From: Candidatus Nomurabacteria bacterium
Lineage (GTDB): Bacteria; Patescibacteriota; Minisyncoccia; Phycocordibacterales; UBA9973
NCBI GenBank assembly: GCA_023267215.1
Contig: JAHFNS010000001.1
Location: 174,710-238,709, forward strand
Length of the DNA stretch: 64,000 bases
Direction: 5' to 3'
Numbering within the stretch: position 1 is the stretch's first letter; each line of letters opens with the position of its first letter. Shown in pieces: positions 14,086 to 39,300 of this stretch. The notes below the pieces were generated by a model. The model ran no database searches and was not told where the DNA came from. It saw only the letters and a program-made list of their open reading frames with translations. Made by a program: the position numbers and the translations under genes.

Positions 14086-14123
14086 ATGTGGATAACTGCC
14101 CCTAAGCTGGGCTTAGGGGCACT
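14086..14123. repeat. DnaA-box-like TGTGGATAA followed by palindrome GCCCCTAAGC-TGG-GCTTAGGGGC (member of the CCTAAGC palindrome family)
   Basis: Perfect 10-bp stem; near-identical copy at 41006..41044 with an inverted loop; sits at the 3' end of Cys-rich paralog 1. Confidence 0.6.
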
Positions 14124-15834
14124 AATATATTTCTTGCTGATAACATCGTTCACAATAAACAATCTCTGATCTATCCGGTGCATATGTCGTTTCAAATTCA
14201 TTTTGACAACCTTCTTTCATACATTTTCTGTGCCAAAGTTTTAAAGGATTTCTCAAATTGATACGTTGATAATGTCGGCAGTTTGGACAAAGTCTCGGTA
14301 AAGGCAAATTCATTCTTTTGTAAAATTTTAATTCCTCTGGAAAAATTCTAAATGCTTCTGTGCATTGTTCTTTGCATTTACCAGCATGCTCACAAGCTAT
14401 AACTTTATTTATTATGTCATCTGTAATATCTTTAATACCATCTGGTATATCCGTGCATTCTATATCAATCTTATAATTTCTAATTTCTGCATCTTCCCAA
14501 TTATAACCTTTCTCAATTGCTTCTCTTTTGTCTAACGGAAAATATTCCTGAGCAATACTTTCATTATAAGCAAAAGGTGAAAGCTCGCTCGGGAAAAATT
14601 CTCCATATTTATATGTTCTTCCTTTTTTATCTACATATGGCATATCGTCCATATGTTTGATAATTTTAGGAATTAAATCTTCATACTCTTCTTTTGTGTA
14701 CTGTTTATTTAAAATACAGTATTGTTTTTTATATAGACCCTCACAACCAAAGATATTTAAACAATCATGACATTCTTCATTGTATCTTGAATCTTGATTT
14801 GAAAAATTTCTAATACCAAAAGCCCCGTTTGATCCACCAAAACCATGAGCAATCTCATAGAGAAGTTCCGCATTAAAGCCTTGAAATGAAGTATCATAAC
14901 TATCTTTGGTATTATTTCTGCTAAAAAATAGATACTTCGAATTTTCAGCTTGTCTAGAACTAAAAGAATTGTGGGTATTTCTAACTTCATATAAATCATC
15001 CCCATTAGAATTAATAGATTTGTATATATGGGCGTAGCGATGTGGTATTTTTAAATTGAGTTTTTTTAATTTTTCTAAATTATCAAGATGTATTTTATAA
15101 CTACCAATATTATTTGATTTAATAAATTCTTGATATTTTTCCTTTGTGTATTGCTGATTGAAAATATTATATTGTTTATTTACAAGTCCAACACAACCAA
15201 AACAATTCATACAATTTCTACAATCTAACAAATAATAACTATCAATACAATCTGTACAGTTATAACTAAAAAATAAAAGATTTGTTCGTGCGCATTCAAA
15301 AAGTTCATAACTAAATTGTATTTTTTCTGAAAAAGCTATATCTAAAGAATCTTGAGAATCAAAAATTTGATTACTAAAATAAACTCGTTCATTATTTATT
15401 CCACCAAATAAAAGATAGCATTCTTTAAGATCAAGACCATAATTACAATATTCGCTTGAAACAAAATTAGTCTGATATAAATTAGATCTTGGAACTTCTA
15501 ATTGTAATAATTGAAATTGACTAAAAAATGGAACAGAAAAATCATACTCACGACCATAATCTAATGGATTCCATTCATCAGAAAGCCAACAATCATGACA
15601 ATAAATTATATATAGTCTTTTTTTGCTATAAACACTAAGTATAGATTTTTTACATATAACACACTCATGTCTATAAAATACACGATTATTGCGAAATAAT
15701 AACCTTTTTTGAAATCGACAGTCCGGACAAAATGTTGGAGCTGGAACTTTTATTTTTTCGTAGAATTTAAAATCTTCGGGCTCTATAATGAAATCCTTCT
15801 TACAGTTTTGACAATTTTTTGTTTCAGAATTCAT
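14122..15834 (-). CDS. Cysteine-rich repeat protein, paralog 1 of 7 (uncharacterised family)
   Basis: 570 aa; N-terminal CQNCKKDFIIEPEDFKFYEKIKVPAPTFCPDCR; internal CxxCxxCFGCxxL modules followed by KxYCILNKQYTKEEY; PYVDKKGRTYKYGEFFPSELSPFAYNE block; C-terminal LCPNCRHYQRINLRNPLKLWHRKCMKEGCQNEFETTYAPDRSEIVYCERCY. Confidence 0.8.
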   Translation of the reverse strand: MNSETKNCQNCKKDFIIEPEDFKFYEKIKVPAPTFCPDCRFQKRLLFRNNRVFYRHECVICKKSILSVYSKKRLYIIYCHDCWLSDEWNPLDYGREYDFSVPFFSQFQLLQLEVPRSNLYQTNFVSSEYCNYGLDLKECYLLFGGINNERVYFSNQIFDSQDSLDIAFSEKIQFSYELFECARTNLLFFSYNCTDCIDSYYLLDCRNCMNCFGCVGLVNKQYNIFNQQYTKEKYQEFIKSNNIGSYKIHLDNLEKLKKLNLKIPHRYAHIYKSINSNGDDLYEVRNTHNSFSSRQAENSKYLFFSRNNTKDSYDTSFQGFNAELLYEIAHGFGGSNGAFGIRNFSNQDSRYNEECHDCLNIFGCEGLYKKQYCILNKQYTKEEYEDLIPKIIKHMDDMPYVDKKGRTYKYGEFFPSELSPFAYNESIAQEYFPLDKREAIEKGYNWEDAEIRNYKIDIECTDIPDGIKDITDDIINKVIACEHAGKCKEQCTEAFRIFPEELKFYKRMNLPLPRLCPNCRHYQRINLRNPLKLWHRKCMKEGCQNEFETTYAPDRSEIVYCERCYQQEIY

Positions 15835-15851
15835 GATTTATCTATTCTATA

Positions 15852-15874
15852 ATTCTATAGAATATTAGAATACT
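15852..15874. promoter_or_regulatory. Conserved upstream motif ATTCTATAGAAT-A-TTAGAATAC ahead of Cys-rich paralog 1
   Basis: Perfect 12-bp palindrome; the same motif recurs upstream of paralog 3 at 22208..22232. Confidence 0.4.
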
Positions 15875-16534
15875 TTAAATCCCCTCTTTTTTAAGTTCTT
15901 CTAGAAGTTCGCGGGCTTTTTTGGAAATTTTGTTTGGTATTCTAAAATTTATTTTTATATATAAATCACCTGCTTTTCCGTTTTTTATTGCCTCACCATA
16001 ACCTGTCATTTTGATAGTCTGTTTATTGTGAATACCAGCAGAAATTTTTATAATTACTTCTTTGTTTCCACTTACTACTATCTTTTTCTCTACACCTAAA
16101 ATAGAATCAATTAAAGAAATATATATATCCATCTGCATATCTCTTCCACGAGGAGTCCGCGTAAACCCCCCTCTACCTCCAGTGAAAAAATCACTGAATA
16201 TATCATTCAAATTTCCAAAATCAAAATCTACATTCCCACCTTGGAAACCTCCACCGAAACCAGAAAAATCAAAACCTTCAAAACCACCTTGTCTAGCTCC
16301 TCCATAACCACCTGCACCCATATTTTCAAAACCAGAGCCAAATTGGTCGTATTTTGCGCGTTTAGTGTCATCTGAAAGCACTTGGTAAGCTTCATTTACT
16401 TCTTTAAATTTTGCTTCATTCCCTTCTTTTTTGTCAGGATGATATTTGTGCGCCAACTTATAAAAAGCCTTCTTTATTTCGTCTTTGGAAGCACCTTTAT
16501 TTATACCTAAAACTTCATAATAATCCTTACTCAT
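15875..16534 (-). CDS. dnaJ: DnaJ-family co-chaperone: J domain, G/F region and short C-terminal domain, lacking the CxxCxGxG zinc finger
   Basis: 219 aa; [35 protein letters not shown] with the HPD motif; Gly/Phe-rich linker; no Cys repeats. Confidence 0.8.
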
Positions 16535-16541
16535 AGGGCTA

Positions 16542-18038: not shown

Positions 18039-18057
18039 ATTTGATTATTCTAGCATA

Positions 18058-18130
18058 AATCACCACCCCTTTCATCCCCTAGCCCATATTCACCTCACCC
18101 CTGCCCCTCTCCTTAGTGAAATAGAGGGGT
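18058..18130. repeat. GC-rich palindromic element, family 1 (CACCTCACCCCTGCCCCTCTCCTT...AGAGGGG), intergenic copy
   Basis: GC island in an AT-rich spacer between ATPase A and Cys-rich paralog 2; shares the CCCCTCTCCTT arm with the copies at 22441 and 26504. Confidence 0.6.
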
Positions 18131-18132
18131 TT

Positions 18133-19839
18133 TTAATATACCTCTTTATTATAACAACTCTTACAAAATATTTTTGGTGCTTCTTCTTTAGTGTAATGGG
18201 TTTTAAAATTAATACCACATTTGTCGCAATTTCTATCAACTTGTTTCATTTGAGAAACCCATATCTTTGCTTTTTCTTCTATTCTACAAAATGGACACTG
18301 TCTAGAAAGAGGCACATTTAATTTTTTTACTAAATCAAGTTCTTGTTTTGCTATTCTGTACCCTCTTGGACAAACACTGCATTTTATAATTTCTTTTAAA
18401 ATTTTGTCATCAGTATTTTTGATATTATCTGGAATTTCTGAAGAATCCAGTGTTATTGGATATTTTTCAAAAAAATGATTACGCCATTTCAATTTATATT
18501 CTTCGACTTCTTTTTCTGTTTTTGGAAATAAAAAGTTAGCATAAGAGTTATTATAAGCGTGTGGAGAAAATTCCATTGGGAAAAATTCTCCATATTTGTA
18601 GATATTTCCTTTTTTGTCTACATATGGCATTTTATTCATGTGTTCAATAATTTTTTCTTTCAATCTAAAATATTCTTCTTTTGTGTATTGTTTATTTAAA
18701 ATACAGTATTTTTTATTTCTTAAAGAGATACATCCAAAACAATCTGACCCTCCGACAACTGACTTACAATATTCTGCATCATTTAATCCCCACCCAGATT
18801 CATGGCTAAATTTAACATTAAATGGGTTCTCCCCGACTGTCACACATTCATAAATCAATTCAGCATTAAATCCCCAATCTACATAATCATAACTATCTTT
18901 CGTAGAGCCTTCTTTCATAAGCATAAGATATTTAGAATTTTCACAGTTTGTAACATCAAAACATTCTTGGCAATTTTTTGATCTAAAAACATAACTACCC
19001 GAAACATTTTTACTTTGAGTTGCCCATACTGGTTGAGGAATATTTTCTTTAAAATATTCCTGCGCTTTTTCTTTCCAATATTGATATTGTTTATATGAAC
19101 CTAAATCAATACTTTTCATTTTATTTTTATATTCCTCTTCAGAAAGTTTCTCACCCATAAATATATATGACCCATTTTTAACATTCACAGCACCCAAACA
19201 ATGATGCACCCCCTCGCAATCTCGAAGAAAGGCACTATCATAACAAAATCTATTATTACTCAAAGATCCTACAATATTAAAAGATTTAAAGAGGTTCGAG
19301 CAATCAAAACACTTTTCTGAATCAAAAACAACTGAACACATATATAAATCTTTATTTCTGGTTAGCCAAAAACTAGAGACACAATCTTCATTGTAATCCG
19401 AGTAATAAACTAAATATAAATTTTTTGAGTGAGCGACATGGTTAACATATGGAGAAGTTTTAATAGTCGCAAAATCGACATGTAAACTCAAAACAGGAGT
19501 TTTTTGCAAAAGTTCTCTCCATTGTTCCAAAAATGGTCTAGAAAAATCAATATTCATACCCATAACAAATGGATCCCAGTTATCACTCCACCAACATTTA
19601 ACACAGTAAACAGTAAAAGGCGTATTTGGTTCATACATAGAAAACCCTTCTTCTCCACAAAGATCACATTTCCGTTTAAATAAAGTAAAATTCGGCATCC
19701 AAATTAATCTTCTTTGTAATCGACAAGATGGGCAAAAAGTTGGTGGTGGAACTTTTATCTTTTCATAAAATCCAAAATCATCTGGCTCGATGATAAAGTC
19801 TTTTTTGCAATTTTTACATTGTCGCATTTCACTTTGCAT
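18133..19839 (-). CDS. Cysteine-rich repeat protein, paralog 2
   Basis: 568 aa; same N-terminal CKNCKKDFIIEPDDFGFYEKIKVPPPTFCPSCR and PYVDKKGNIYKYGEFFPMEFSPHAYN block; diverged C terminus. Confidence 0.8.
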   Translation of the reverse strand: MQSEMRQCKNCKKDFIIEPDDFGFYEKIKVPPPTFCPSCRLQRRLIWMPNFTLFKRKCDLCGEEGFSMYEPNTPFTVYCVKCWWSDNWDPFVMGMNIDFSRPFLEQWRELLQKTPVLSLHVDFATIKTSPYVNHVAHSKNLYLVYYSDYNEDCVSSFWLTRNKDLYMCSVVFDSEKCFDCSNLFKSFNIVGSLSNNRFCYDSAFLRDCEGVHHCLGAVNVKNGSYIFMGEKLSEEEYKNKMKSIDLGSYKQYQYWKEKAQEYFKENIPQPVWATQSKNVSGSYVFRSKNCQECFDVTNCENSKYLMLMKEGSTKDSYDYVDWGFNAELIYECVTVGENPFNVKFSHESGWGLNDAEYCKSVVGGSDCFGCISLRNKKYCILNKQYTKEEYFRLKEKIIEHMNKMPYVDKKGNIYKYGEFFPMEFSPHAYNNSYANFLFPKTEKEVEEYKLKWRNHFFEKYPITLDSSEIPDNIKNTDDKILKEIIKCSVCPRGYRIAKQELDLVKKLNVPLSRQCPFCRIEEKAKIWVSQMKQVDRNCDKCGINFKTHYTKEEAPKIFCKSCYNKEVY

Positions 19840-19842
19840 AAA

Positions 19843-20427: not shown

Positions 20428-20476
20428 ATTTTTATATTAAATTTAAATTGTTGATATAATTTTTTCTCCTAATTTT

Positions 20477-22201
20477 TTAATACACTTCAGCTTGATAACA
20501 ACGTTCACAATAAATTATCTCTTTTCTATCTGGTGCGTAAGAAGTCTCGAATTCATTTTGACAGCCTTCTTTCATGCATTTGCGATGCCAGAGCTTCATA
20601 GGGTTACGCTTCTTTAATCTAGCCTCATGCCTACAAAGAAAACACAGATGTTGTAATGGCACTCCTATCTTTCTATATAAATTCAATTCATCTGGTGTTA
20701 TTTTATAAGCTCCTCTACAATAATTACTTTCTTTGTCTTTATTCTCACAACCTATGACTTCTTTTGTTATAGAATCATCAACATCATCTAAGCTATCTGG
20801 AAGATCTTTAGCTTCTATTGTTATTTCATATTCATTTGCCTTTTTATCTCTCCATCTATAACCCATCTCTAACGCCTTCTGTTTTGTTATTGGAAAATAA
20901 TCTTGAGCTTGAGTCTCGTTATAACAAAATGTCGAAAGTTCTGCTGGAAAAAATTCTCCATATTTATATATTCTTCCTTTTTTGTCCACATACGGCATAT
21001 TCATCATGTGCTCTTTTATTTTGGAAATTAACTCTTCATATTTTTCTTTAGAATATTGTTTATTTAAAATACAGTATTTTTTATTTCGTAATCCAATACA
21101 ACCAAACAAATTTGAACATCCATGACAACTAATGGAATATTCAACATCACTAGAACTATAAACCACACTTGTAAAAAGATTACGATAATTCCCTATCCCA
21201 GTATCGAAACATTCATACACAAGCTCTGCAAACCCTATACCAGGACCAGAATCATAAGTATCTTTCACATTTTTTGCCAACCAATGAGAATTTTTTGTAT
21301 CTTCAACATTTCCACTAATATCAAAACAGGTTTTACAATTCTTTGCACCCTCTAGATTATCACCTGTCGAATTTACAGTTTTTATCTGAACGGCGAAACG
21401 GTGTATTGTTTTTAAACAAAATTCATCAAATTTATTTTTTTGCTCTATGACACTTTTATGTTTCTTAAGATTTAATTTTTCTAAGCGTGTGTTGTATTCT
21501 TCTCTCGTTAGTTGCTCATTCCACATACAGTATGATTTGTTGCGCAAGTTCGTACAACCAAAACAATTTGTACAACCCATACAATCATATAAAAAATATG
21601 AATCAACACAACTTTTACAATTGAAAGAATACAATAAATGATAACTATCAGCACATATCATATCTTCATAACAAAGTTCTGAACGATGTAATATATAAGA
21701 ATCTAAACACTCCCTAGTTTCTGAAATTCTATTTGAATAGAATGTTTTCTCAATTCTCCAAGAACCAGAAGACATATAGCTATCTTTACTTTCTTCTGCC
21801 ACATTACAATAATCACTATTCGTAGCATGTATATTTGAAAGACATTGTATAGGAACACGGTCTCTCAATTCTCTCCATTGTTCAAAAAAATTCTTAGAAA
21901 AATCATATTCCTTTCCATATGAAGTAGAATCCCATGCATCACTCCACCAATATTCTGAATCATATACACAAACTTTTTCTTCTGGAGAAATAAAAGAAAT
22001 TATCGTTTCACTATGATTTGGAGCATCACATTTTCTTCTAAAGAAAGACATTTCATTACGCCAACATAAACGCCGAATAGTCCGACATTCCGGACAAAAT
22101 GTAGGTGGCGGAACTTTTATCTTTTCATAAAAATGAAAATCTTCAGATTCTATCTTAAATTCTTGCTTACAATTTTGACATATTTTAATTTCTTCTTTCA
22201 T
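20477..22201 (-). CDS. Cysteine-rich repeat protein, paralog 3
   Basis: 574 aa; CQNCKQEFKIESEDFHFYEKIKVPPPTFCPECR N terminus; C-terminal KLWHRKCMKEGCQNEFETSYAPDRKEIIYCERCY. Confidence 0.8.
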   Translation of the reverse strand: MKEEIKICQNCKQEFKIESEDFHFYEKIKVPPPTFCPECRTIRRLCWRNEMSFFRRKCDAPNHSETIISFISPEEKVCVYDSEYWWSDAWDSTSYGKEYDFSKNFFEQWRELRDRVPIQCLSNIHATNSDYCNVAEESKDSYMSSGSWRIEKTFYSNRISETRECLDSYILHRSELCYEDMICADSYHLLYSFNCKSCVDSYFLYDCMGCTNCFGCTNLRNKSYCMWNEQLTREEYNTRLEKLNLKKHKSVIEQKNKFDEFCLKTIHRFAVQIKTVNSTGDNLEGAKNCKTCFDISGNVEDTKNSHWLAKNVKDTYDSGPGIGFAELVYECFDTGIGNYRNLFTSVVYSSSDVEYSISCHGCSNLFGCIGLRNKKYCILNKQYSKEKYEELISKIKEHMMNMPYVDKKGRIYKYGEFFPAELSTFCYNETQAQDYFPITKQKALEMGYRWRDKKANEYEITIEAKDLPDSLDDVDDSITKEVIGCENKDKESNYCRGAYKITPDELNLYRKIGVPLQHLCFLCRHEARLKKRNPMKLWHRKCMKEGCQNEFETSYAPDRKEIIYCERCYQAEVY

Positions 22202-22207
22202 TCTAAT

Positions 22208-22232
22208 ATTCTATAGAATTTTAGAATAGATA
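22208..22232. promoter_or_regulatory. Conserved upstream motif ATTCTATAGAAT-TT-TAGAATAGATAC ahead of paralog 3
   Basis: Same 12-bp palindrome plus TAGAATA as upstream of paralog 1. Confidence 0.4.
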
Positions 22233-24308
22233 CTATTCTAATACTTTTTTCAAAACATCTTCTGGTACTTCTTTAATTTCTTTTTTTTCTGTCACAATAT
22301 TTGCTGTATCTATTAAACTTTTTAATTTATCCATATCACTCCTACTTGCTGATTTATCTTTCAAGATATTTTTATGTTCAGGTTTTTCATTTTTTAATTC
22401 ACTCAGTGAAATTGCTGGAGGTTTAGGCACAACTATATTTCCCCTCTCCTTGGTAAGGAGAGGGTCAGGGTGAGGTAAATTTGTTTCATTCAACGCTTTA
22501 TCTAAAACTTCTTTTAATGCTGAATTATCTTTAGCTCCTAAAGGTTTTGATTTTATTTTAAATGGTTCAAAAGAAGGTTTTTTACTGAAAACTTTTTTAA
22601 TAGTTGAAAATATTTTAGGAGAAACAGGTGCTACTTTTTTAATTGGTGCAATATTTTTAATTGGAACAGCTTTACCAAATTCATAACACACAGGTTTATC
22701 TTCTCTGTATCTATCTTCTCCTTCTTTCACATCTATCTCTTCGTTTGTTATATCCTTGTTCTGAAATTCTATTCCTAAATCTGCCAATGGTTTATAAAAT
22801 TTTGTTTCATCTTGTTTTATTTGTTTCATTGAACCAGCCACTGGTTTCAATTCTCCTGCTTTTATTTTAGAGATGCAATCTTTACAATAAACAGCTCGGC
22901 CTGGTTCTGGTTTAAAAGGCACTAACGTATCTTTTTTACAAATAGAACAAACTGCCGGAAATTTCTCCATACTACCTATATCACTTTCGTTACCAAGAGA
23001 CATCCCGCTCCAATTATTAATTTCTCTTTCCACTACTTCTCTTGGTCGACAATAAAGTTCTCGAGAAGTCTTAATAACTTCATCTTCAATATCTTTGTTA
23101 CCAGATTTTACCATCGGCGGAAGAGTTTTAGCAGAAAATGGACGCGAAGAAACACCATCTATCATTAATTTCAAATAAATTTTGTAATTTGGCAAACTGA
23201 CAATATCTTGAGGGGTAAATTCTGGTTCAAATTCTTTTTCTAAAAATTCTGCATCATCTGCACCAACCCTAAAAATCATCATCGTGCCAACGTTACCAAA
23301 AATAGAATCTCTCACACTTGAATTTTTATCTGAAATTAATTGAGCAGTGTATTGATGTGCCACGGTCAAATTTAATCTATATTTTCTAGCCTCGGACAAG
23401 ATACCAGCAAAAGCCTCCGTCACGAAATTTTGAAATTCATCTACATAAAGATAAAAATCTTTTCTATCATCTTCTGGAATACGCACACGTTCCATTGCAG
23501 CCAATTGAATCTTAGTAATTATCATCCCTCCTAAGAGTGCGGAGTTGTCTTCACCGATACGCCCTTTGGAAACATTCACTAAAAAAATTTTCCCTTCATT
23601 CATTATGTCAAAAACATTTATGGTGCTTATGGATTGTCCGACTATATTTCGAATAATAGAAGTGGAAAGAAATTGTCCGACTTTGTTTTGAATAGGTGCA
23701 ATAGCTTCATTTCTAAATTTCTCTTGCCAGGCTTCATATTCATGAACCCAAAAAGCTTTAATGACTGGATCTTTTAAATTCGAAATTATTTTTTGACGAT
23801 AATCTTTATCCACCAACATTCGAGGTATACCTAATAGTGTCGAACCTGGAGTATCAAGCAAAGCTAAAATAGTATTATTTAAAATATATTCCATACGGGC
23901 AGACCAAGCATTTGCCCAAATTTTCGTAAAGATACCCATCAATCCAGAAGCCACTAAATGTTTATACTTTGGATCAACAAGTTCAAGTACATTGAAACCA
24001 ATATGAAAATCTGCATCGGCTGGATTAAAATAAATAACATCTTTCATGCGGTGTGGCGGAATGGCAGAAAGAATGGCTTCCACATTTTCTCCGTGCGGGT
24101 CAACCATACAAACGCCGTCACCATTTTCAATGTTCTGAATGATCATATTAAACATCAAAGCAGATTTACCAGTACCAGACTTTCCAAGAATATAAACATG
24201 CTGACGCCTGTCTTTGCGCTTGATACCAAAAAGCTGGTTTTTATCCCTGTAAGTAGTGTAACCAATATAAGTAAGTTCTTTATTTTTAGGTATTTCCTTC
24301 AGGTCCAT
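22233..24308 (-). CDS. P-loop ATPase of the FtsK/HerA/VirD4 superfamily, paralog B, with a C-terminal CxxC...CxxC zinc-ribbon extension
   Basis: 691 aa; Walker A ILGKSGTGKS, Walker [13 protein letters not shown]; about 45% identical to paralog A over the ATPase core; C-terminal CSICKKDTLVPFKPEPGRAVYCKDC; contains an in-frame GC-rich element at 22441..22476. Confidence 0.75.
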   Translation of the reverse strand: MDLKEIPKNKELTYIGYTTYRDKNQLFGIKRKDRRQHVYILGKSGTGKSALMFNMIIQNIENGDGVCMVDPHGENVEAILSAIPPHRMKDVIYFNPADADFHIGFNVLELVDPKYKHLVASGLMGIFTKIWANAWSARMEYILNNTILALLDTPGSTLLGIPRMLVDKDYRQKIISNLKDPVIKAFWVHEYEAWQEKFRNEAIAPIQNKVGQFLSTSIIRNIVGQSISTINVFDIMNEGKIFLVNVSKGRIGEDNSALLGGMIITKIQLAAMERVRIPEDDRKDFYLYVDEFQNFVTEAFAGILSEARKYRLNLTVAHQYTAQLISDKNSSVRDSIFGNVGTMMIFRVGADDAEFLEKEFEPEFTPQDIVSLPNYKIYLKLMIDGVSSRPFSAKTLPPMVKSGNKDIEDEVIKTSRELYCRPREVVEREINNWSGMSLGNESDIGSMEKFPAVCSICKKDTLVPFKPEPGRAVYCKDCISKIKAGELKPVAGSMKQIKQDETKFYKPLADLGIEFQNKDITNEEIDVKEGEDRYREDKPVCYEFGKAVPIKNIAPIKKVAPVSPKIFSTIKKVFSKKPSFEPFKIKSKPLGAKDNSALKEVLDKALNETNLPHPDPLLTKERGNIVVPKPPAISLSELKNEKPEHKNILKDKSASRSDMDKLKSLIDTANIVTEKKEIKEVPEDVLKKVLE
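22441..22476. repeat. GC-rich palindromic element, family 1 (CCCCTCTCCTTGGTAAGGAGAGGGTCAGGGTGAGGT), inside the CDS in frame
   Basis: Perfect 11-bp inverted repeat; encodes PDPLLTKERG in ATPase B. Confidence 0.6.
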
Positions 24309-24357
24309 ATAGGTAAATTATACATCCTGTAGTCAATTTTAACAATATATTTCAGTC

Positions 24358-24393
24358 AAAAAAAAGACGGAAGCCTTGCTTCCGTCTTTTTTT
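24358..24393 (-). terminator. Intrinsic terminator downstream of dnaK (GACGGAAGC-CTT-GCTTCCGTC plus T-run)
   Basis: 9-bp perfect stem flanked by A-run and T-run (bidirectional). Confidence 0.7.
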
Positions 24394-24394
24394 C

Positions 24395-26317
24395 TTATTT
24401 TGTTTCCCCTTCAGGTTTTTCGCCTGCCTTATCGGCGGGTGAATTTTCTTTGTATTCCGCATCGTGGACTTCGGGATTTTGTTCTTCAGGAGCACTTGCA
24501 GGAGGAGTCTCAGCGCCAGCTTTATTCATAGCCTCACCGATTTTGGACATCTCAGCAGAAAGCTCTTCTGTTGCTTTCTTTATCGCTTCAACATCCGTTC
24601 CGTCTTTCACTCCACGAAGTGTAGTGATTTTCGTATTCACATTTTCTTTCACATCCGCAGGAATTTTTGCTTCATTATCTTTCAATGCTTTTTCAGCAGT
24701 GTAGATAATCATTTCTGCAGTATTTTTGATATCAACAATTTCTCTTTTCTTTTTATCTTCTTCAGCATGAAGCTCTGCATCTTGTTGCATTTTTTTAATA
24801 TCTTCTTCTTTGAGACCAGAACTTGCTTCAATCTTGATTGATTGAGCTTTACCTGAAGCTTTATCTTTCGCAGTCACGTTCAAGATTCCATTTACATCAA
24901 TATCAAATATAACTTCCACTTGTGGTATGCCACGTGGTGCTGGCGGAATTCCATCTAGAATAAAGCGTCCGAGTGATTTATTATCAGAGGCCATTGGGCG
25001 TTCTCCTTGGACAATATGAATCTCCACAGAAGTCTGATTATCAGCAGCAGTTGAAAACACTTGAGATTTTGAAGCTGGAATAGTCGTATTTCTATCAATC
25101 AATTTTGTACCCACTCCTCCTAATGTTTCAATACCTAAAGATAAAGGTATAACATCTAAAAGCAAAACATCTCGCACATCTCCTGCTAAAACGCCTGCTT
25201 GCACAGCAGCACCAAGAGCCACAACTTCATCTGGATTGATAGACATATTTGGCATTTTACCAAAAAGATTTTTCACTGCTTCCACAATCATTGGCATTCT
25301 AGTTTGTCCACCAACCATTATAATTTCATTTATTTCACCCATTTTAAATGGAGAAGCTTCTAAGGCTCTTTTAGTTATTTCAATTGACCTATCAACATAT
25401 TCTTTTGCTAAAGATTCCAAAGTTGCACGAGACATTTTCAAAAGTAAATGTTTTGGTCCACCAGCATCAGAAGTGATAAATGGGATATTTATTTCTGCTT
25501 CCATTGTGGTAGAAAGTTCGTGTTTTGCTTTTTCTGCTGCTTCTTTCAATCTTTGATGAGCAAGAGGGTCTTTGCGAACATCGATACCTGATTCCTTTTT
25601 ATACTCTTCAGCAATCCAAGAAATGATTTTTCTATCAATATCTCCTCCACCCATGTGCGAGTCACCATCTGTAGACTTCACTTCTATCACATCATCTCCA
25701 ATTTCAAGCACAGATACGTCGAAAGTTCCTCCACCGAAGTCATAAACAACTATTTTTTCATTTTTCTTTTTATTAAATCCATAAGCAAGTGCAGCAGCAG
25801 TTGGTTCATTGATGATTCTTTTGACATCAAGCCCTGCTATTTGTCCTGCATCTTTCGTTGCTTTTCTTTGTGCATCATTAAAATAAGCAGGCACAGTGAT
25901 GACAGCTTCTGTAATTTTTTCTCCAAGCTTTGCTTCTACATCTGTTTTTATTTTCTGCAAAATCATCGCAGAAATTTCTTCTGGACGATAAAACTTATCA
26001 GACATTTTTACTTTTACTCCACCATCTTCTCCAGTCTCAATTTTAAACGGAGCAGTTCCTTTATCTTTCTGTACTTCTGGATCATCAAATCTGTGACCCA
26101 TGTATCTTTTTATTTCAGAAATTGTATTTTCCGGATTTGTGACTGCTTGTCTTTTTGCAAGAAGCCCAACGATACGGTCACCATTCTTTGCTGTCGCGAC
26201 GACAGAAGGAGTGGTGCGATTGCCCTCCACATTTTCAATAATTTTTGGCACGCCTCCTTCAATGAAAGCGACTGCCGAATTTGTTGTACCTAAATCTATA
26301 CCTATTATTTTTGACAT
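24395..26317 (-). CDS. dnaK: Chaperone DnaK (Hsp70)
   Basis: 640 aa; [21 protein letters not shown] and VGGQTRMP Hsp70 signatures. Confidence 0.97.
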
Positions 26318-26416
26318 ATATTTTATAAGGTTAATTTATAATGTTTAATAATTTTACTAATATTTCGCGACCACTAAAAACTTGTATAATTAGAGTATAT
26401 ATGATAGCATATAGGT

Positions 26417-26974
26417 ATGTCAAGTAAAAATGAATATTCTAATAAAATACTTAAAATTCTAGGTGAAAAACCAGTTATTCCTGTAGACGAAGTAAAAAGA
26501 ATTCACCTCTCCCCAACCCCTCTCCTTGATAAGGAGAGGGGCGAAGGGGTGAGGTCTGGCTATGCCTTAAATCGTTCAATAAAAAACTTAATTGAATCTG
26601 GATGCGTAGATATGATTCAATCTGATAATCAAAATTATTTAAAATTAACCAAAAAAGGGAAAAATAAATTAAACTCTATTAAGCTTGAAGGAGATCAAGC
26701 TCTCGTATCTAACACTTGGGATGGTTTGTGGAGAATAATAATTTTAGATATTCCAGAAAACAGAAAAAACGAAAGAGAAAGTTTACGTTATCTTTTAAAG
26801 AAAGCCGATTTCGTTTGTATTAAGAATACTGTTTGGATATCACCTTTCCCTTATGAACATCTTTTTACAAATATCAAAAAAGATTTAGGTCTCGGTACTG
26901 AACTGATGATTATCGTCACCGACAAAATTGACGAGGAAACAAAACTCGCTTTTTTGAAAAGTCTCAAAAAATAG
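26417..26974 (+). CDS. Hypothetical protein: N-terminal winged-helix-like region plus a C-terminal Cas2/VapD-like segment
   Basis: 185 aa; WDGLWRIIILDIPENRKNERESLRYLLKKADFVCIKNTVWISPFP resembles the Cas2 beta1-alpha1 core pattern; contains an in-frame GC-rich element. Confidence 0.4.
   Translation: MSSKNEYSNKILKILGEKPVIPVDEVKRIHLSPTPLLDKERGEGVRSGYALNRSIKNLIESGCVDMIQSDNQNYLKLTKKGKNKLNSIKLEGDQALVSNTWDGLWRIIILDIPENRKNERESLRYLLKKADFVCIKNTVWISPFPYEHLFTNIKKDLGLGTELMIIVTDKIDEETKLAFLKSLKK
26504..26555. repeat. GC-rich nested palindromic element, family 1 (CACCTCTCCCCAA-CCCCTCTCCTTGATAAGGAGAGGGG-CGAAGGGGTGAGGT), in frame
   Basis: Inner perfect 11-bp stem plus outer complementary arms; encodes LSPTPLLDKERGEGV. 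Confidence 0.65.
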
Positions 26975-27000
26975 GAAATTTAAAAAATTTTAAGAGTCGT

Positions 27001-27045
27001 GTTGGTCCCCTGTCCTCTTGACTCCGAGGGCGAAGGCTCAAGAAA
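27001..27045. repeat. Degenerate GC-rich element (...GAGGGCGAAGGCTCAAG), intergenic
   Basis: Shares GAGGGCGAAGG with the 26504 copy; GC island in an AT-rich spacer. Confidence 0.35.
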
Positions 27046-27072
27046 TTTTTTGAAATTCCCTATTTTTTATTT

Positions 27073-28947: not shown

Positions 28948-28990
28948 AATTTAACTCTTTCACACATATACGCTATCGCTGATATGTGTA

Positions 28991-30706: not shown

Positions 30707-30713
30707 AATTCAA

Positions 30714-30731
30714 TCTACGCCATGGCGTAGA
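30714..30731. promoter_or_regulatory. Perfect palindrome TCTACGCCATGGCGTAGA just upstream of the paralog 4 start
   Basis: 18-bp inverted repeat; related ACGCCATGGC at 32641..32652 upstream of paralog 5. Confidence 0.4.
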
Positions 30732-30840
30732 TGCTACTTTTTGATATTGTGCCACCAGATTTTAACGCGAAATTTAACTGTCTGCCAAGCCATTGGCACA
30801 ACATATCTGATATATTTTAATTTTGTTTTTATTCTGTTCA

Positions 30841-32622
30841 TCATACAAATTCAGCTTGATAACATTTCTCACAATATACTATTTCCTTCCTTTCGTCACT
30901 TATAGCTGTCTCAAATTCATTCTGGCAAGGACTATTATCATGTGTATGTTTTATGGTATTTTTATATACACCATCTTTTGATTCTACACCATTACACATA
31001 CATTTTCTATGCCATAATTTCGGTGGATTTTTCTTTTTTGTACGTTGTATGTATCTACAATTAGGACATAAATGCGGTAAGGTTATATTTATTTGTCTGT
31101 GAAATTGTAGCTCATTAGGCAATATACGGAAAGCCTCTGTACATTGTTCATTACATTCTCCTTTATGTTCACATTCTATTACTTCGTTTAAAATCGAATC
31201 TTCTACATCTTTAATATCATCTGGTAAATCTTCAGCTTTTAAAGTAACTCTATAATTTCTTTCTTTTTCTTCATGCCATTTAAATCCTTTTTCTAGAGCT
31301 TCTTCTTTACTTAAAGGAAAATATTTATGAGCCCATGTTTCATTGTAAGAGAATAAAGAAAGATCACTCGGAAAATGCTCCCCATATTTATATATCTTTC
31401 CACAACTATCTATATGTGGCATATCCATCATATGCTGTTTGATTTTAGGAATTAATTCCTCATATTCCTCTTTAGTATATTGTTTATTTAAAATGCAATA
31501 TTTTTTATTTTTTAGATTTGTGCAACCAAAACAATTTGAACAATTATATATTTTATTAGAATATTCAATATCTTTAGAGTCATAACAGGCACGGCTAAAA
31601 AAACAACGTTGAGAATGCATCCCTCCGGTATTTTCATAATAAAGTTCTGTATTACCACCACATAAAATGGCATCATAACTATCTTTCATTAAAAGACCAG
31701 CCATAAAAATAAACTTGCTGTTTTCAACCCCCATACGTGTAGCAAAACAAAATTGACAATTTTTAGTATTTCTAAGATCGTCCCCAGTTACATTTACAGA
31801 ATTAGTTATTAAAGCAAATCGTCTTGGAATTTTATAATAAAAATCCCAGAATTTTTCTTCTATTTTTTTTAAAGTACCATAACTACTTAAATTCCAATTT
31901 TTGATTTCTTTTTCATATTCTTCTTTTGTATATTTCTTGTTAAAGATACAATATTTTTGATTTCTCAAATTTACACAACCAAAACAGTTCGAACATCCAA
32001 TACAATTTAAAAGAAATGCGGAATCCATACATTCATCTGAAAAATAAACAAATTTAGTGTTATAAACCCCATTTGAGTCTAAAGTTTCATATATGTGGTC
32101 ACCATTTATTATAAAATCAGAATCCATAGAATCACGAACAAAACCAGGGGTTTGACAGTTATAACAATTAATTGATTCATAGCCATCAAATGTCAGCATG
32201 CAATTTTTACAACGGATATTCCCATTACAATAACCAAGATCAGAGGAGTTTTTAGATCCCGTCGCTTGATTTGGTACAACTTTTTGCAATTCATAAAATT
32301 GTTCTAAAAATGGCTTTGAAAAATCATATTCCCTACCATATTCTATTCCATCCCAAGAATCTCCATGCCAACATGAAATACAATAAACCTTAAATGGAGA
32401 ATTTTCATTATAAATACTTATAATTTCTTTATTACAATTTTCACATTTATCCTTATAGAGAGATCTATCTTCACGATAAGCAAGACGTCTTATCATTCTA
32501 CACTCCGGACACCAAGTCGGTGAAGGTACTTTTATCTTTTCATAAAAATTAAAATCTTCCGGCTCTATTGTGAAGTCTTTTTTGCAATTCTGACATATTC
32601 TTTTTTCTTGTTTATATTCCAT
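30841..32622 (-). CDS. Cysteine-rich repeat protein, paralog 5
   Basis: 593 aa; same N terminus as paralog 4; C-terminal CEHKGECNEQCTEAFRILPNELQFHRQINITLPHLCPNCR with a 20-aa insertion. Confidence 0.8.
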   Translation of the reverse strand: MEYKQEKRICQNCKKDFTIEPEDFNFYEKIKVPSPTWCPECRMIRRLAYREDRSLYKDKCENCNKEIISIYNENSPFKVYCISCWHGDSWDGIEYGREYDFSKPFLEQFYELQKVVPNQATGSKNSSDLGYCNGNIRCKNCMLTFDGYESINCYNCQTPGFVRDSMDSDFIINGDHIYETLDSNGVYNTKFVYFSDECMDSAFLLNCIGCSNCFGCVNLRNQKYCIFNKKYTKEEYEKEIKNWNLSSYGTLKKIEEKFWDFYYKIPRRFALITNSVNVTGDDLRNTKNCQFCFATRMGVENSKFIFMAGLLMKDSYDAILCGGNTELYYENTGGMHSQRCFFSRACYDSKDIEYSNKIYNCSNCFGCTNLKNKKYCILNKQYTKEEYEELIPKIKQHMMDMPHIDSCGKIYKYGEHFPSDLSLFSYNETWAHKYFPLSKEEALEKGFKWHEEKERNYRVTLKAEDLPDDIKDVEDSILNEVIECEHKGECNEQCTEAFRILPNELQFHRQINITLPHLCPNCRYIQRTKKKNPPKLWHRKCMCNGVESKDGVYKNTIKHTHDNSPCQNEFETAISDERKEIVYCEKCYQAEFV

Positions 32623-32664
32623 AATCCAGATTCCCCCATATACGCCATGGCTGATATGAGGGAA

Positions 32665-34335
32665 TTAATTGATATTTTGTTTATAACACTCTTCGCAGGC
32701 TATTTTTTGATATCCCCATTCTGGTAAATAATATGCTTCTATATCCTTTTTACAATAAATACATTTGTATGGATATACTTGCAATACCATCAAATCTTTC
32801 AAGATATTTTTTATTCTCACATCAAAATGTAATCTCGGAAGTGGAATATTATTTTCTTTATAAAAAATAAGTTCATTTTTTGCAATATTAAAACGCCATC
32901 CTGTCTCCGGGCAAATGAGTGCTTGGGTAACTATCGTATCTTCTACATCTTTAATATCATCTGGTAATTGATTTGTCGGCATACCTTCTACATTATTTTC
33001 AACAACATCTTCCCAGTAACCCCCAAGTTTTAAAATATCCTCTTTTTTCGTATCAGGAAAATATAAAAATGCACTGGAAAAATTGAAAGGTCCAGCGCTC
33101 ATAGAATAAGGTAAAAACTTTCCATATTCTTCTCTTTTCTTCATATCAGAAATAATTTTATTTTTTAATTCTTCATACTGTTCTTTAGTATATTGTTTAT
33201 TTAAAATACAATATTTCTTCTTCTTTAAGCCAACACAACCAAAACAATATTCACATTCAATACATAGATCTAAATATTCAGAATATCTAGATGAAGACCA
33301 GTTAGAGTACTTGAGTGCATAATTCTTATCACAACAACTACAATTACCAGATAATTCTGAATACCAACAACCATTAGCATCAATATCGGATTTTTTTCTC
33401 ATTCCTCGAATACAATTCGAGCAATCCTCAGATTCATTTATTGTATTACAATTATGACAATTTTTTACATCTAGTAGATAATCGCCATCAGAACCATAAG
33501 CTCTCATATTAAAGTTTTCTCTATGGACTACTTCTTTTTGAACAATTTCATCAAAATGTCTCTTATAATCTTGTATTGATTCATACGAGCCGAGTTTGAA
33601 TAATTTTAATTTTTCCAAATATTCTTCCCTTTTATATTGAATATTTTCTATACAATATGATTTTCCCCTTAAATTCCAACACATAAAACAATTCTGGCAA
33701 TTGCGACAATCATACAAGAAATAGGAATCTATGCAATCGCGGGAATGTTTAGAGAAAAAAAGTCTATAAGAATGGTGACATTCTGAAATTTCATAGCATT
33801 TTTCACAATCAAAACATATTGTTGCGTCCAGGGAATTTTTAACTTTTATGTTTCTATATGAATAGAATAAATCTTCACATTCTTCCATAGAACGAGATAA
33901 GTAACAATTTTTAGAATTCCATACATCATCACACCAATCACAGCCAGTATTTTTTTTACCGTTCTGATGAGGATGAGGGACTTTTTCTTGAAGCTCTTGA
34001 AGTTGTTCAAAAAATGATTTATTTTCATCATAATCTTGACCGTAATCCATAGCATCCCATTTGTCGCTATACCATTCGGAAGATGTATAGATTGGATAAC
34101 GACTTTTTTCCGGTAATACTGTGATCAAGCTTTCACCTGAGAGGTCAGACTTGCCTTTTCTAAATTTTCCAAACATCCAAAAAGATAAATGTATCTTTAC
34201 ACGACAGAAAAAACATATGGTTGGTAATTCTATGCCAACTTTTTCATATAAAGAAAGTTCCCCCTCTGTTATGGTAAATAGATTTAGACAGTGCTCACAA
34301 GTTTTACTTTGCGTTTTCATTGTACTCAAAAACAT
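32665..34335 (-). CDS. Cysteine-rich repeat protein, paralog 6 (most divergent)
   Basis: 556 aa; retains the CxxCxxCF(G/M)CxxL plus KKKYCILNKQYTKEQYEEL modules; N and C termini diverged; start overlaps the grpE stop. Confidence 0.7.
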   Translation of the reverse strand: MFLSTMKTQSKTCEHCLNLFTITEGELSLYEKVGIELPTICFFCRVKIHLSFWMFGKFRKGKSDLSGESLITVLPEKSRYPIYTSSEWYSDKWDAMDYGQDYDENKSFFEQLQELQEKVPHPHQNGKKNTGCDWCDDVWNSKNCYLSRSMEECEDLFYSYRNIKVKNSLDATICFDCEKCYEISECHHSYRLFFSKHSRDCIDSYFLYDCRNCQNCFMCWNLRGKSYCIENIQYKREEYLEKLKLFKLGSYESIQDYKRHFDEIVQKEVVHRENFNMRAYGSDGDYLLDVKNCHNCNTINESEDCSNCIRGMRKKSDIDANGCWYSELSGNCSCCDKNYALKYSNWSSSRYSEYLDLCIECEYCFGCVGLKKKKYCILNKQYTKEQYEELKNKIISDMKKREEYGKFLPYSMSAGPFNFSSAFLYFPDTKKEDILKLGGYWEDVVENNVEGMPTNQLPDDIKDVEDTIVTQALICPETGWRFNIAKNELIFYKENNIPLPRLHFDVRIKNILKDLMVLQVYPYKCIYCKKDIEAYYLPEWGYQKIACEECYKQNIN

Positions 34336-34900
34336 TCACTCGGGCGGCACGAATCACACGGTCGCCAAGTTTATAACCCTTTTGAATAACTTCAGATATT
34401 TTATGATTATCTTCTTTTTTTTCTGTCGGCGTCATATCTATAGATTGATGAATATTTGGATCAAAATTTTCTCCAACTTCTCCTATTTCTTTCACATTAT
34501 ATTCTTCAAAAATTGTGTTCAATTGAGCATGAATATATTCCACTCCTTTTCTCCAACTTTCATCCACTTTCTCCCAAGCTTCACGATTAGCAAAAGCCAT
34601 ATTAAAACTATCTAAAACACTTAAAAATCTAGTTAGAATTCTCTCACGCATAGATTCTGAAAAATTGGCTTTCCTTTCTTCTTCTTGTTTTTTATAATTT
34701 ATAAAATCTGCTCGCTCTTTCTGCCAACCTGTCAGATATTCTTCTTTTTCAGCTTTACACGTCTTCAAATCGGCCCTTAGTTTCTTAAGAGTCTTTTTTA
34801 GATCTTCTTCACCATCTTCATTGAATTCAAACTCCAAAACTTCTGCCTCTGGTTCAGATTCTTTTGAGATTTCTTTATTTTCTTCTTCTGCCATAAGCAT
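34304..34900 (-). CDS. grpE: Nucleotide exchange factor GrpE
   Basis: 198 aa; GWQKERADFINYKKQ and FDPNIHQSI conserved GrpE blocks. Confidence 0.85.
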   Translation of the reverse strand: MLMAEEENKEISKESEPEAEVLEFEFNEDGEEDLKKTLKKLRADLKTCKAEKEEYLTGWQKERADFINYKKQEEERKANFSESMRERILTRFLSVLDSFNMAFANREAWEKVDESWRKGVEYIHAQLNTIFEEYNVKEIGEVGENFDPNIHQSIDMTPTEKKEDNHKISEVIQKGYKLGDRVIRAARVNVFEYNENAK

Positions 34901-38720: not shown

Positions 38721-38722
38721 AA

Positions 38723-38833
38723 TTATTGTTTTTGTTTATGTTTTGGATTAGAACAAATCACTCTTAAATGTCTGGCTCTTTTAACCATTTTACAATTATC
38801 ACATATTTTTTTAACTGTTGATCTAATTCGCAT
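38723..38833 (-). CDS. rpmJ: 50S ribosomal protein L36 (absent from the ORF track because it is under 60 aa)
   Basis: Manual translation gives [36 protein letters not shown], the canonical bL36 with its C-x2-C...C-x4-H zinc ribbon; it sits between rpsM and infA as expected. Confidence 0.85.
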
Positions 38834-39201: not shown

Positions 39202-39253
39202 TAAGTACTATGATTATAATAAATATAAAACTTTAAGTCAAAGCACAATGTTG

Positions 39254-39297: not shown

Positions 39298-39300
39298 AAA

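Follow-up and report, generated by a model that had tools for sequence, protein, structure and literature searches.

The closest described counterpart of the chaperone genes considered here is the Gram-positive operon hrcA-grpE-dnaK-dnaJ, controlled by HrcA and its CIRCE element (controlling inverted repeat of chaperone expression). The window, a stretch of 64,000 nucleotides (nt) from a contig of Candidatus Nomurabacteria bacterium (GenBank assembly GCA_023267215.1, contig JAHFNS010000001.1, positions 174,710 to 238,709), carries the same three genes, grpE, dnaK and dnaJ, in the same order on a single strand. Unlike the Gram-positive operon, it contains neither hrcA nor CIRCE, holds ~8 kb of unrelated genes in each of the two gaps, has a dnaK that appears monocistronic, and encodes a reduced DnaJ. 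The gaps are occupied by genes for a family of Cys-rich proteins, for two VirD4-like ATPases (A and B) and for an ATP-binding cassette (ABC) exporter. Comparison of about 160 related loci points to the ATPase machinery, and not the chaperone, as the real partner of the Cys-rich family. On the explanation favoured here, which is judged probable though well short of certain, an old Paceibacteria module of ATPases, a DUF8128 membrane protein and Cys-rich proteins merged with the Hsp70 locus in one lineage, with the Cys-rich proteins acting as clients of the ATPase motor.

Described systems offer a comparison for the parts of this module. ATPases A and B resemble the type IV coupling proteins (T4CPs) VirD4, TrwB and TraD in matching the TrwB_AAD_bind and TraG-D_C families and in carrying Walker A and B motifs. 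They also agree with the orphan T4CP homologs of Patescibacteria, which number about two per genome and lie far from virB4; a survey of 2,918 Patescibacteria genomes counted 5,713 VirD4-like T4CP homologs, just 148 of them near virB4, and left the role of the orphans open, stating that exaptation 'cannot be ruled out' (PMC12102498). Unlike T4CPs, the two ATPases lack an N-terminal anchor and have no type IV secretion system (T4SS) or relaxase nearby, and ATPase B bears a CxxC-x17-CxxC finger. VirD4-like ATPases flanking arrays of Cys-rich genes are previously unreported. The DUF8128 protein recalls the VirB4 N-terminal domain, TrsD and EccE; it is encoded beside VirD4-like ATPases rather than beside VirB4 or EccC, and in the clade of the window it lies ~25 kb from the ATPases instead of adjacent to them. 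Finally, tandem paralogs without signal peptides, placed by FtsK/VirD4-superfamily ATPases and often by an ABC exporter, bring to mind the Esx and PE-PPE genes beside EccC and the RTX genes beside HlyB-type exporters, a likeness that extends to the Cys-rich beta-solenoid core and the conserved extreme C-terminus. Here the parallel is a functional analogy only, as there is no sequence or fold homology, and the Cys-rich zinc end modules and high conservation are atypical of substrates.

The genes of the Hsp70 region, in the direction of transcription of grpE, are as follows.

34304..34900, minus strand: grpE, 198 residues (PF01025, E 1e-38, 132.8 bits over profile positions 4-163 of 165)
32665..34335, minus strand: Cys-rich paralog 6, 556 residues; most close relatives have an ortholog with 73-82% identity immediately behind grpE
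30841..32622, minus strand: Cys-rich paralog 5, 593 residues
28991..30706, minus strand: Cys-rich paralog 4, 571 residues
27073..28947, minus strand: MsbA-like ABC exporter half-transporter (ABC_membrane and ABC_tran; TIGR02204 E 3e-111, below cutoff)
26417..26974, plus strand: PaaX-like winged-helix protein (PaaX_M, E 2e-18), divergent from dnaK
24395..26317, minus strand: dnaK, 640 residues (PF00012, E 1e-242, 806.8 bits over profile positions 1-598 of 599)
22233..24308, minus strand: ATPase B, 691 residues, soluble VirD4/TraD-like P-loop ATPase with a K/E/P-rich tail
20477..22201, minus strand: Cys-rich paralog 3, 574 residues
19843..20427, minus strand: open reading frame (ORF) of 194 residues between paralogs 3 and 2, with a sub-threshold DUF2482 match only
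18133..19839, minus strand: Cys-rich paralog 2, 568 residues
16542..18038, minus strand: ATPase A, 498 residues, soluble VirD4/TraD-like P-loop ATPase, 7 nt upstream of dnaJ
15875..16534, minus strand: reduced DnaJ, 219 residues, with J domain, Gly/Phe-rich (G/F) region and C-terminal domain (CTD) I only
14122..15834, minus strand: Cys-rich paralog 1, 570 residues; AlphaFold2 model with predicted local distance difference test score 82 and predicted template-modelling score 0.85

All of these genes lie on the minus strand except the winged-helix gene. From grpE the order runs through paralogs 6, 5 and 4, the ABC exporter and the oppositely oriented PaaX-like gene to dnaK, and from there through ATPase B, paralog 3, the 194-residue ORF, paralog 2 and ATPase A to dnaJ and paralog 1; beyond paralog 1 lie a membrane protein gene and, on the opposite strand, an arginase-family gene. 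The grpE stop is separated from the dnaK start by 7,986 nt and five genes, and the dnaK stop from the dnaJ start by 7,860 nt and a further five genes. The ORFs and Pfam matches uphold the description given in an earlier note on this DNA, which had placed grpE, dnaK and dnaJ at these coordinates on the minus strand in canonical order and had recognised two separating blocks of ~8 kb containing six Cys-rich paralogs, the ATPases, the ABC exporter and a winged helix-turn-helix gene. The single-strand canonical order is therefore present, and the three genes are nevertheless not predicted to form one contiguous transcription unit, because of the two ~8-kb gaps, the divergent gene upstream of dnaK and the strong terminator after dnaK.

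Two samples of relatives bear on how this layout arose: 80 loci from GTDB species genomes, centred on Cys-rich genes, and 78 metagenome loci centred on GrpE, among which those with GrpE 68-88% identical are counted as close relatives. The clade shares the backbone alaS-...-rpsM..rpsI-grpE-(Cys, 0-4 copies)-(ABC)-PaaX(-)-dnaK-ATPase B-(Cys)-ATPase A-dnaJ. Of 52 close relatives, 47 have a Cys-rich gene immediately behind grpE, and in 27 of these 47 its ORF covers the grpE stop, with an overlap of 17-44 nt; in the window the grpE stop likewise lies inside the paralog 6 ORF, as the earlier note had seen, and the overlap is 32 nt. Between grpE and dnaK, 4 loci have no Cys-rich gene, 5 have one, 13 two, 6 three and 2 four; between the two ATPases, 2 loci have none and 4 have one; and the site of paralog 7 holds 0-2 copies. 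The ABC exporter, whose true start is probably an internal ATG, occupies the same position in about a dozen relatives and is a recurrent neighbour of Cys-rich arrays. The layout is inherited rather than the product of fresh insertions, and the interleaving is stable inside the clade.

Outside the clade the two components come apart. Loci L158 and L160, with GrpE 36-38% identical, have contiguous grpE-dnaK-dnaJ and no Cys-rich gene within 10 kb. Locus L067 reads Cys-NUDIX-hrcA-grpE-dnaK-dnaJ, its Cys-rich gene standing two genes upstream of hrcA and outside the operon, and in RAAC4_OD1_1 (L045) PaaX(-)-dnaK-dnaJ is contiguous and a single Cys-rich gene stands by itself 6 kb downstream, surrounded by polyamine genes. 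The contiguous Gram-positive form is thus kept in the outgroup Paceibacteria L067 (with hrcA), L158 and L160, and an intact operon with Cys-rich genes elsewhere, which the earlier note had named as an arrangement that would refute its proposal, does occur outside the clade. Conversely, the module occurs without the chaperones. The 80 Cys-centred loci hold 189 family genes, 187 of them co-directional, with 74 Cys-Cys and 20 Cys-ATPase adjacencies; ATPase A or B is present in 24 loci, an Hsp70-system gene in 16, and both in 10. Where ATPase A is at least 85% identical to that of the window, it lies directly upstream of dnaJ in all seven loci and DUF8128 is not nearby. Where it is 63-78% identical, no Hsp70 gene is nearby in eight of nine loci and DUF8128 is nearby in seven of the nine. 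The order outside the Hsp70 context is SecDF-HARE-HTH-DUF8128-ATPase-(Cys)n, as in L031 and L050, which have ATPase B-(Cys)4-5-ATPase A; HARE-HTH-DUF8128-ATPase-(Cys)n is found in L014, L015, L031, L036, L037, L048 and L050.

On this comparison the stretch separating dnaK from dnaJ goes back to a single older module, ATPase B-(Cys)n-ATPase A, which stands alone beside DUF8128 in other Paceibacteria, and it did not build up by successive insertions. Gene order across the relatives shows a reconstructed clade ancestor in which this module separated dnaK from dnaJ and a second array plus the ABC exporter separated grpE from dnaK; by the same reconstruction, the arrays have since gained and lost copies (0-4 per site) within a fixed framework. 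Read in this way, the Hsp70 'operon' of the window is a relic of hrcA-grpE-dnaK-dnaJ parted in one clade by a much older module, and the chaperone link is clade-specific and probably historical. The earlier note had proposed a repeated insertion of the family specifically into the Hsp70 operon. That proposal fails on three counts, namely that paralog 7 sits by infA and rpsM, that 50 of the 80 loci have neither an Hsp70 gene nor an ATPase within 10 kb, and that the dnaK-dnaJ block represents one module.

Control of dnaK bears directly on whether the cassettes are functionally tied to the chaperones, and it involves two elements in addition to the genes.

24359..24393, minus strand: dnaK intrinsic terminator, GACGGAAGC-AAG-GCTTCCGTC followed by T8, directly after the stop codon
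26361..26385, minus strand: palindromic operator-like element of dnaK, downstream of the -10 box and ahead of the start codon; the coordinates cover its left arm, its core and the first part of its right arm

From these, dnaK looks like an insulated unit with its own promoter, a private palindrome and a strong terminator. A promoter-like TTGACA-18-TATACT precedes it at 26423..26394 on the minus strand. The terminator, already claimed for dnaK in the earlier note, consists of a 9-bp G+C-rich stem extended by A/U pairs and followed by T8, with an RNA folding energy of -22.5 kcal/mol (z = -6.4 against shuffled sequences); a promoter-like TTGTTA-17-TATAAT then lies ahead of ATPase B at 24345..24317. 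The palindrome spans ~30 bp with consensus ACAAGTATTTAGTG..CACTAAATACTTGT and is present, under a strict pattern, in at least 20 of 36 related PaaX-dnaK spacers, including that of RAAC4_OD1_1. On folding it gives no stable RNA hairpin, which makes a protein-bound operator more likely than an RNA element. The PaaX-like protein, whose PaaX(-)/dnaK(+) pairing is seen in 36 related loci and whose divergent gene invariably accompanies the palindrome, is the obvious candidate for a dnaK regulator binding the palindrome. A CIRCE element was looked for and none was found, and hrcA is not present here, which suggests a replacement heat-shock regulator in this lineage; the locus would accordingly document HrcA/CIRCE control of dnaK giving way to another palindrome and a PaaX-like protein. 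The palindrome has one copy in the window, with none upstream of grpE, clpB, the ATPases or any Cys-rich gene. Cis-regulation common to dnaK and the cassettes was rejected on this ground, and no cis-regulatory link between them was found.

These data weigh on a reading that extends the functional coupling suggested in the earlier note, namely that the Cys-rich proteins or the ATPase machine are obligate clients of DnaK, DnaJ and GrpE (for folding, metal loading or export competence) and that the gene order has been selected for co-expression. The interleaving itself is real and conserved, has tight junctions and shows no assembly oddity; specificity for Hsp70 is the part that did not hold, and such coupling is considered unlikely. 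The overlapped grpE stop in 27 of 47 relatives speaks for it, as do the 7-nt distance from ATPase A to dnaJ with adjacency in all seven loci of at least 85% identity, the dnaJ near DUF8128-ATPase A-Cys-Cys in L056, the Cys-rich gene near hrcA-grpE in L067, and the presence of ClpB in the same collinear 45-kb block. Set against this, the arrangement is confined to one clade, outside which the module keeps company with DUF8128 without Hsp70 and grpE-dnaK-dnaJ is contiguous; dnaK appears insulated, and its operator is absent upstream of every Cys-rich and ATPase gene in the window; and Cys-rich genes are missing between grpE and dnaK in four clade members and between the ATPases in two. Tight junctions are often shared by unrelated neighbours too in streamlined genomes. 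The rplQ-rplM spacer in the window is 6 nt, and grpE itself starts 118 nt after rpsI. The pairs grpE-paralog 6 and ATPase A-dnaJ are probably co-transcribed, as are many unrelated neighbours in this genome, and the locus warns against reading function into operon-like proximity in streamlined genomes, which may be no more than an accident of one clade.

With the chaperone set aside, the module proper comprises the two ATPases, the Cys-rich proteins, and a membrane protein with its constant neighbour, together with a seventh paralog away from the Hsp70 region.

49295..50590, minus strand: DUF8128 membrane protein, 431 residues, with one N-terminal transmembrane helix
50674..51702, minus strand: Sigma70_r4 and HARE-HTH protein, 342 residues, constant upstream neighbour of DUF8128
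39301..41004, minus strand: Cys-rich paralog 7, 567 residues, just upstream of infA-rpmJ-rpsM, with 53% identity to paralog 1 by tblastn

ATPase A matches TrwB_AAD_bind (PF10412, 28.5 bits), TraG-D_C and T4SS-DNA_transf and carries the Walker A motif GKSGVGKT and the Walker B motif LYVDEF, and ATPase B matches TrwB_AAD_bind (39.1 bits), DUF87, TraG-D_C and zf_Tbcl_2. The Pfam cutoffs are 20.5 bits for PF10412 and 22 bits for PF12696, for which the ATPases score 25.4 and 26.1. Their best NCBIfam scores, 37-48 bits, fall far below the equivalog cutoffs of 250-650. Neither ATPase has a transmembrane segment (no 19-residue Kyte-Doolittle window reaches 1.6), so the membrane anchor of a T4CP is missing, and no T4SS gene (virB4 and the like) or relaxase occurs among the annotated ORFs of the window. 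The C-terminal CxxC-x17-CxxC finger of ATPase B, at residues 448-482, scores 45.8 bits on TIGR04272 (cutoff 36) and 43.4 on PF23477 (cutoff 27). In the Cys-rich proteins, residues 57-83 and 538-565 line up with this finger in register, with the spacings C58..C82 and C538/C543..C564; the Cys-rich paralogs themselves score 12-14 bits on TIGR04272, for which the cutoff is 36. The DUF8128 protein of the window was found as a homolog of the ~430-475-residue protein encoded upstream of the ATPases in other lineages (E 2e-32), and PF26449 (DUF8128) is listed in the precomputed annotation for it and its homologs. It superposes on the solved fold of the VirB4 N-terminal domain and EccE at a sequence identity of 5-14%.

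The seven Cys-rich paralogs are 33-53% identical to paralog 1, and the six in the Hsp70 region span 556-593 residues with 5.1-6.6% Cys and 35-49% identity to paralog 1. They have no Pfam, NCBIfam or PADLOC match; at E<=10 only weak zf_Tbcl similarity appears (E 0.01-0.03). A profile search returned at least 7,990 homologs, all annotated 'hypothetical', none with a Pfam domain and all from metagenome-assembled genomes (MAGs) of Paceibacteria type, and an exhaustive hidden Markov model search gave 5,046 clusters at 50% identity, 2,207 of them at E<=1e-30, nearly all 545-600 residues long. Matches in genomes with lineage names come from Nomura-, Giovannoni-, Wolfe-, Staskawicz-, Lipton-, Jorgensen- and Sungbacteria and from RAAC4_OD1_1, all of them Parcubacteria/Paceibacteria. 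No published description of the family was found in the literature on Patescibacteria Cys-rich proteins, VirD4 or DUF8128. The conserved cysteines comprise an N-terminal quartet (C8/C11/C36/C39), a central ladder of 9-residue spacing with CxxCxxCxxC (C196-C223) and another copy at C355-C373, the N-terminal module once more near the C-terminus (C481/C491/C516/C519), and a terminal C-x4-C-x17-CxxC. The proteins appear to consist of a Cys-ladder beta-solenoid flanked at both ends by zinc-ribbon or treble-clef modules, and to be synthesised in the cytoplasm; they lack transmembrane segments by hydropathy and have no signal peptide. Tandem expansions occur elsewhere, with 12 copies in 21.8 kb in the single-cell genome AH-259-L05 (L020, 1-21773), 9 copies in L041 and 8 in L050, and such arrays take up a very large share of genomes below 1 Mb. 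In the window, a tiny genome spends ~12 kb on seven copies of one unknown family.

According to the favoured reading, ATPases A and B would dock on membrane-bound DUF8128 as a split VirB4/T4CP-like motor, and the Cys-rich paralogs would be its clients, whether as cargo or as assembled subunits. Recognition might proceed via the common CxxC-x17-CxxC-type fingers or via the conserved C-terminus. Proximity to Hsp70 would then be the historical accident of one clade, possibly with a benefit from co-expression, and no requirement of the family. If so, the association of the Cys-rich family with orphan VirD4-like ATPases and a VirB4-N-domain/EccE-like protein yields a testable hypothesis on the role of these ATPases, and it may bear on how obligate symbionts build or export something. 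As a handle on abundant 'dark' genes of Patescibacteria, the module is more interesting than the Hsp70 locus itself.

Several observations weigh against this reading. Neither an ATPase nor an Hsp70 gene lies within 10 kb in 50 of the 80 Cys-centred loci, many of which are short, so that the ATPase link is not obligatory at the level of gene order; the loci are, moreover, phylogenetically non-independent, and the counts overstate the number of events. In L056, from a different lineage, dnaJ stands two genes upstream of DUF8128-ATPase A-Cys-Cys, an exception which, together with the tight grpE/paralog 6 and ATPase A/dnaJ junctions, is compatible with selected co-expression. The client or cargo role is inferred from gene neighbourhood, fold analogy and absent signal peptides, and every step of the proposed mechanism comes from comparison of sequences and folds. 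Orthologs of single paralogs are unusually conserved, at 65-82% identity across genomes and about as much as GrpE, a level more in keeping with core machinery inside the cell than with proteins exported to act on a host. Unfolded export also sits poorly with zinc ribbons, whose folding normally takes place in the cytoplasm.

Conservation and zinc ribbons thus argue against classical unfolded export and make an intracellular role a serious rival, although on balance a rather unlikely one. Under it, the Cys-rich proteins would handle nucleic acids or metals inside the cell, for example as zinc-finger adaptors delivering DNA or RNA to FtsK/HerA/CedD-like translocases during uptake, or as scaffolds for storage of Zn or Fe-S. 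Their multiple treble-clef or zinc-ribbon modules (the weak zf_Tbcl and sub-threshold TIGR04272 similarities), the similarity of the ATPases, weak by E-value, to TraD, CedD and HerA, which are families of DNA translocases, and a sequence conservation typical of core machinery are all consistent with this role. All of these family matches, however, lie below curated thresholds, and the role leaves unexplained both the up to 12 tandem paralogs of L020 and the membrane-anchored VirB4-NTD/EccE-like partner with the recurrent ABC exporter. A further reading keeps both motor and chaperone, in an ATP-driven export or assembly system where DUF8128 recruits the ATPases to handle the Cys-rich arrays and Hsp70 holds or loads the clients in one clade; the Cys-rich proteins would be secreted cargo or subunits of a surface or cytoskeletal fibre. 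This is considered very improbable; if true, it would be the first secretion module that is both coupled to a chaperone and specific to the Candidate Phyla Radiation.

The earlier note had also allowed for an insertion hotspot. On this view the Cys-rich genes, with or without ATPases, would be mobile or fast-turnover cassettes that settle repeatedly at permissive sites without any functional link. The fixed array sites and their variable copy number of 0-4 among close relatives bear out the descriptive half of that idea. Orthologs of paralog 1 in quite different contexts (L002, L003, L005, L007-L013), a genome-specific 194-residue ORF within the array, and short repeated hairpins flanking some paralogs (TAAGC-N3-GCTTA, 5 copies against 0.06 expected) could be taken in the same sense. 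The mobile half finds no such footing. Pfam, NCBIfam and PADLOC scans of the region's ORFs detected no integrase, transposase or relaxase, and among the 2.9 million viral contigs of IMG/VR only two partial Cys-rich matches occur, at contig ends, leaving the family essentially absent there; a viral or mobile origin of the family was rejected on this near-absence. In PADLOC, which covers anti-phage defence systems, neither the Cys-rich proteins nor DUF8128 have a match, and the ATPases show generic HerA/mad8 similarity only. In addition, 187 of the 189 copies run co-directionally with the surrounding housekeeping genes, orthologs appear to be under strong purifying selection (65-82% identity), and the ATPase B...ATPase A frame and the grpE/paralog 6 junction are stable in dozens of genomes. 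Tandem duplication, loss and recombination between arrays account for the variation without mobility, and the hotspot is regarded as very unlikely.

The DnaJ of the window is a reduced form. The J domain (PF00226, E 9e-26) covers residues 4-63 with the HPD motif ('YHPDK'), residues ~64-125 are G/F-rich, and residues 134-201 match only positions 2-76 of the 152 in the DnaJ_C profile, so that CTD II and the dimerisation end are missing. The Pfam scan gives no match to PF00684, and the sequence contains no Cys residue. With a score of 170.6 against the TIGR02349 cutoff of 377.2, the protein has neither the zinc finger nor the complete CTDs of a class A DnaJ. The earlier note's description of a DnaJ with J domain and G/F linker and without a zinc finger was accurate, and the loss of CTD II, which it had not mentioned, can be added. 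Because CTD I alone is retained, the protein is probably unable to dimerise in the usual way.

Across relatives, DnaJ at the syntenic position falls into three sizes: ~360-376 residues with four CxxCxGxG repeats, ~285-292 residues with the zinc finger kept and a short C-terminus, and ~211-228 residues with neither zinc finger nor Cys. The top 120 homolog clusters comprise 82 short, 2 intermediate and 36 full-length forms, a distribution that one change explains on a neighbour-joining tree of the common region. By this tree, DnaJ lost its zinc finger and CTD II just once, within one sub-clade, and the short DnaJ is a conserved, selected state of that sub-clade, neither a pseudogene nor an artefact. 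Full-length zinc-finger DnaJ occurs in the same ATPase A-dnaJ layout in L023, L063 and L148; the loss is therefore later than the cassettes and not explained by them. For the same reason, and given loss on a single branch, the suggestion that CxxC-rich neighbours compensate for the missing finger is disfavoured. The locus documents a stepwise erosion of class A DnaJ to a J-G/F-CTD I minimal form kept by selection. Class B/CbpA J proteins likewise combine a J domain, a G/F region and a C-terminal substrate-binding domain without a zinc finger, and some sources name orthologs of the window DnaJ 'curved DNA-binding protein'. Unlike CbpA, the window DnaJ goes back to the class A protein of the dnaJ locus, its nearest relatives being 361-369 residues long with PF00684; it keeps CTD I alone and scores 79.9 on the NCBIfam CbpA model, for which the cutoff is 403.

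Several short elements accompany the Cys-rich genes.

15852..15863, no strand assigned: palindrome core ATTCTATAGAAT, immediately ahead of paralog 1, with another copy at 22208-22219 ahead of paralog 3

The palindrome around this core is ~26 bp long and AT-rich, and it abuts or overlaps the ATG. Among related loci it abuts the ATG in 7 of 302 Cys-rich genes and in none of the 426 other genes, with examples in L087, L117, L129, L131, L135, L065 and L003. As RNA, the two copies fold weakly (-6.7 and -8.1 kcal/mol, z -0.9 and -2.4), so the element may be a protein-binding site; no claim is made for an RNA thermometer-like hairpin, the folding being weak. The TAAGC-N3-GCTTA hairpins lie at 14103, 39255, 39281, 41024 and 50638, flanking paralogs 1 and 7 and standing upstream of the DUF8128 gene. 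Their extended form, CCTAAGC-N3-GCTTAGG, is found in 0 of 166 related loci, and the hairpin is probably a genome-specific terminator or an element resembling repetitive extragenic palindromes. A second hairpin, CATATCAGC-N4-GCGTATATG, has two copies on the minus strand against 0 expected, at 28965-28986 and 32637-32658, in the short spacers from paralog 4 to the ABC exporter and from paralog 6 to paralog 5. The 194-residue ORF between paralogs 3 and 2, which the earlier note had called a methyltransferase, has no significant Pfam, NCBIfam or PDB match, a 'VLGCGD' motif being the sole hint of such an activity. None of ~160 related loci contains it, and it was apparently acquired recently by this genome alone.

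By ORF listing and Pfam and NCBIfam scans, the window is a low-GC (~31%), gene-dense stretch whose housekeeping genes are nearly all on the minus strand. Its gene content is typical of Patescibacteria, named close homologs come from MAGs of Nomurabacteria, Paceibacterota and Minisyncoccia, and the genome is that of a member of the Paceibacteria (Parcubacteria/OD1, Nomurabacteria-like). The closest genome relative (L001/L021, JAMPXW010000002.1) is deposited as 'Burkholderiales bacterium', and many loci among L003-L081 as 'uncultured Candidatus Saccharibacteria'; these public labels are probably wrong, the gene content and synteny being Paceibacteria-like.

In transcription order, the block begins with clpB and, further on, typA, followed by the Sigma70_r4/HARE-HTH gene, the DUF8128 gene and yceG, and then by an RNase T-like gene, an alpha/beta hydrolase, mnmA, mgtC, alaS, two unknown genes and paralog 7. 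After paralog 7 come infA, rpmJ, rpsM, rpsK, rpsD, rpoA, rplQ, rplM, rpsI and grpE. The genes infA (IF-1) and rpmJ (L36), too short for the ORF list, fill an apparent 580-nt gap at 38721-39300 on the minus strand between paralog 7 and rpsM, which places paralog 7 at the head of the infA-rpsM-rpoA cluster. Upstream of paralog 7, the two unknown genes (41044-42354 and 42364-43566, minus strand) are syntenic in dozens of relatives. One of them encodes a 400-residue protein with faint matches to FtsA, EutJ and Ppx (actin/Hsp70 fold) and the other a 436-residue protein with a single transmembrane segment, and the pair may resemble PilM/PilN. The 436-residue protein (U436, 41044-42354) was considered as a relative of DUF8128 and rejected, having no similarity to it. 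The clpB gene (55740-58427, minus strand) belongs to the same collinear ~45-kb minus-strand block as grpE, dnaK and dnaJ, an arrangement kept in relatives L164 and L166. Four tRNA genes, distributed over both strands, cluster at 62883-63410 at the window's right end, and a fifth tRNA gene lies at 55060-55142.

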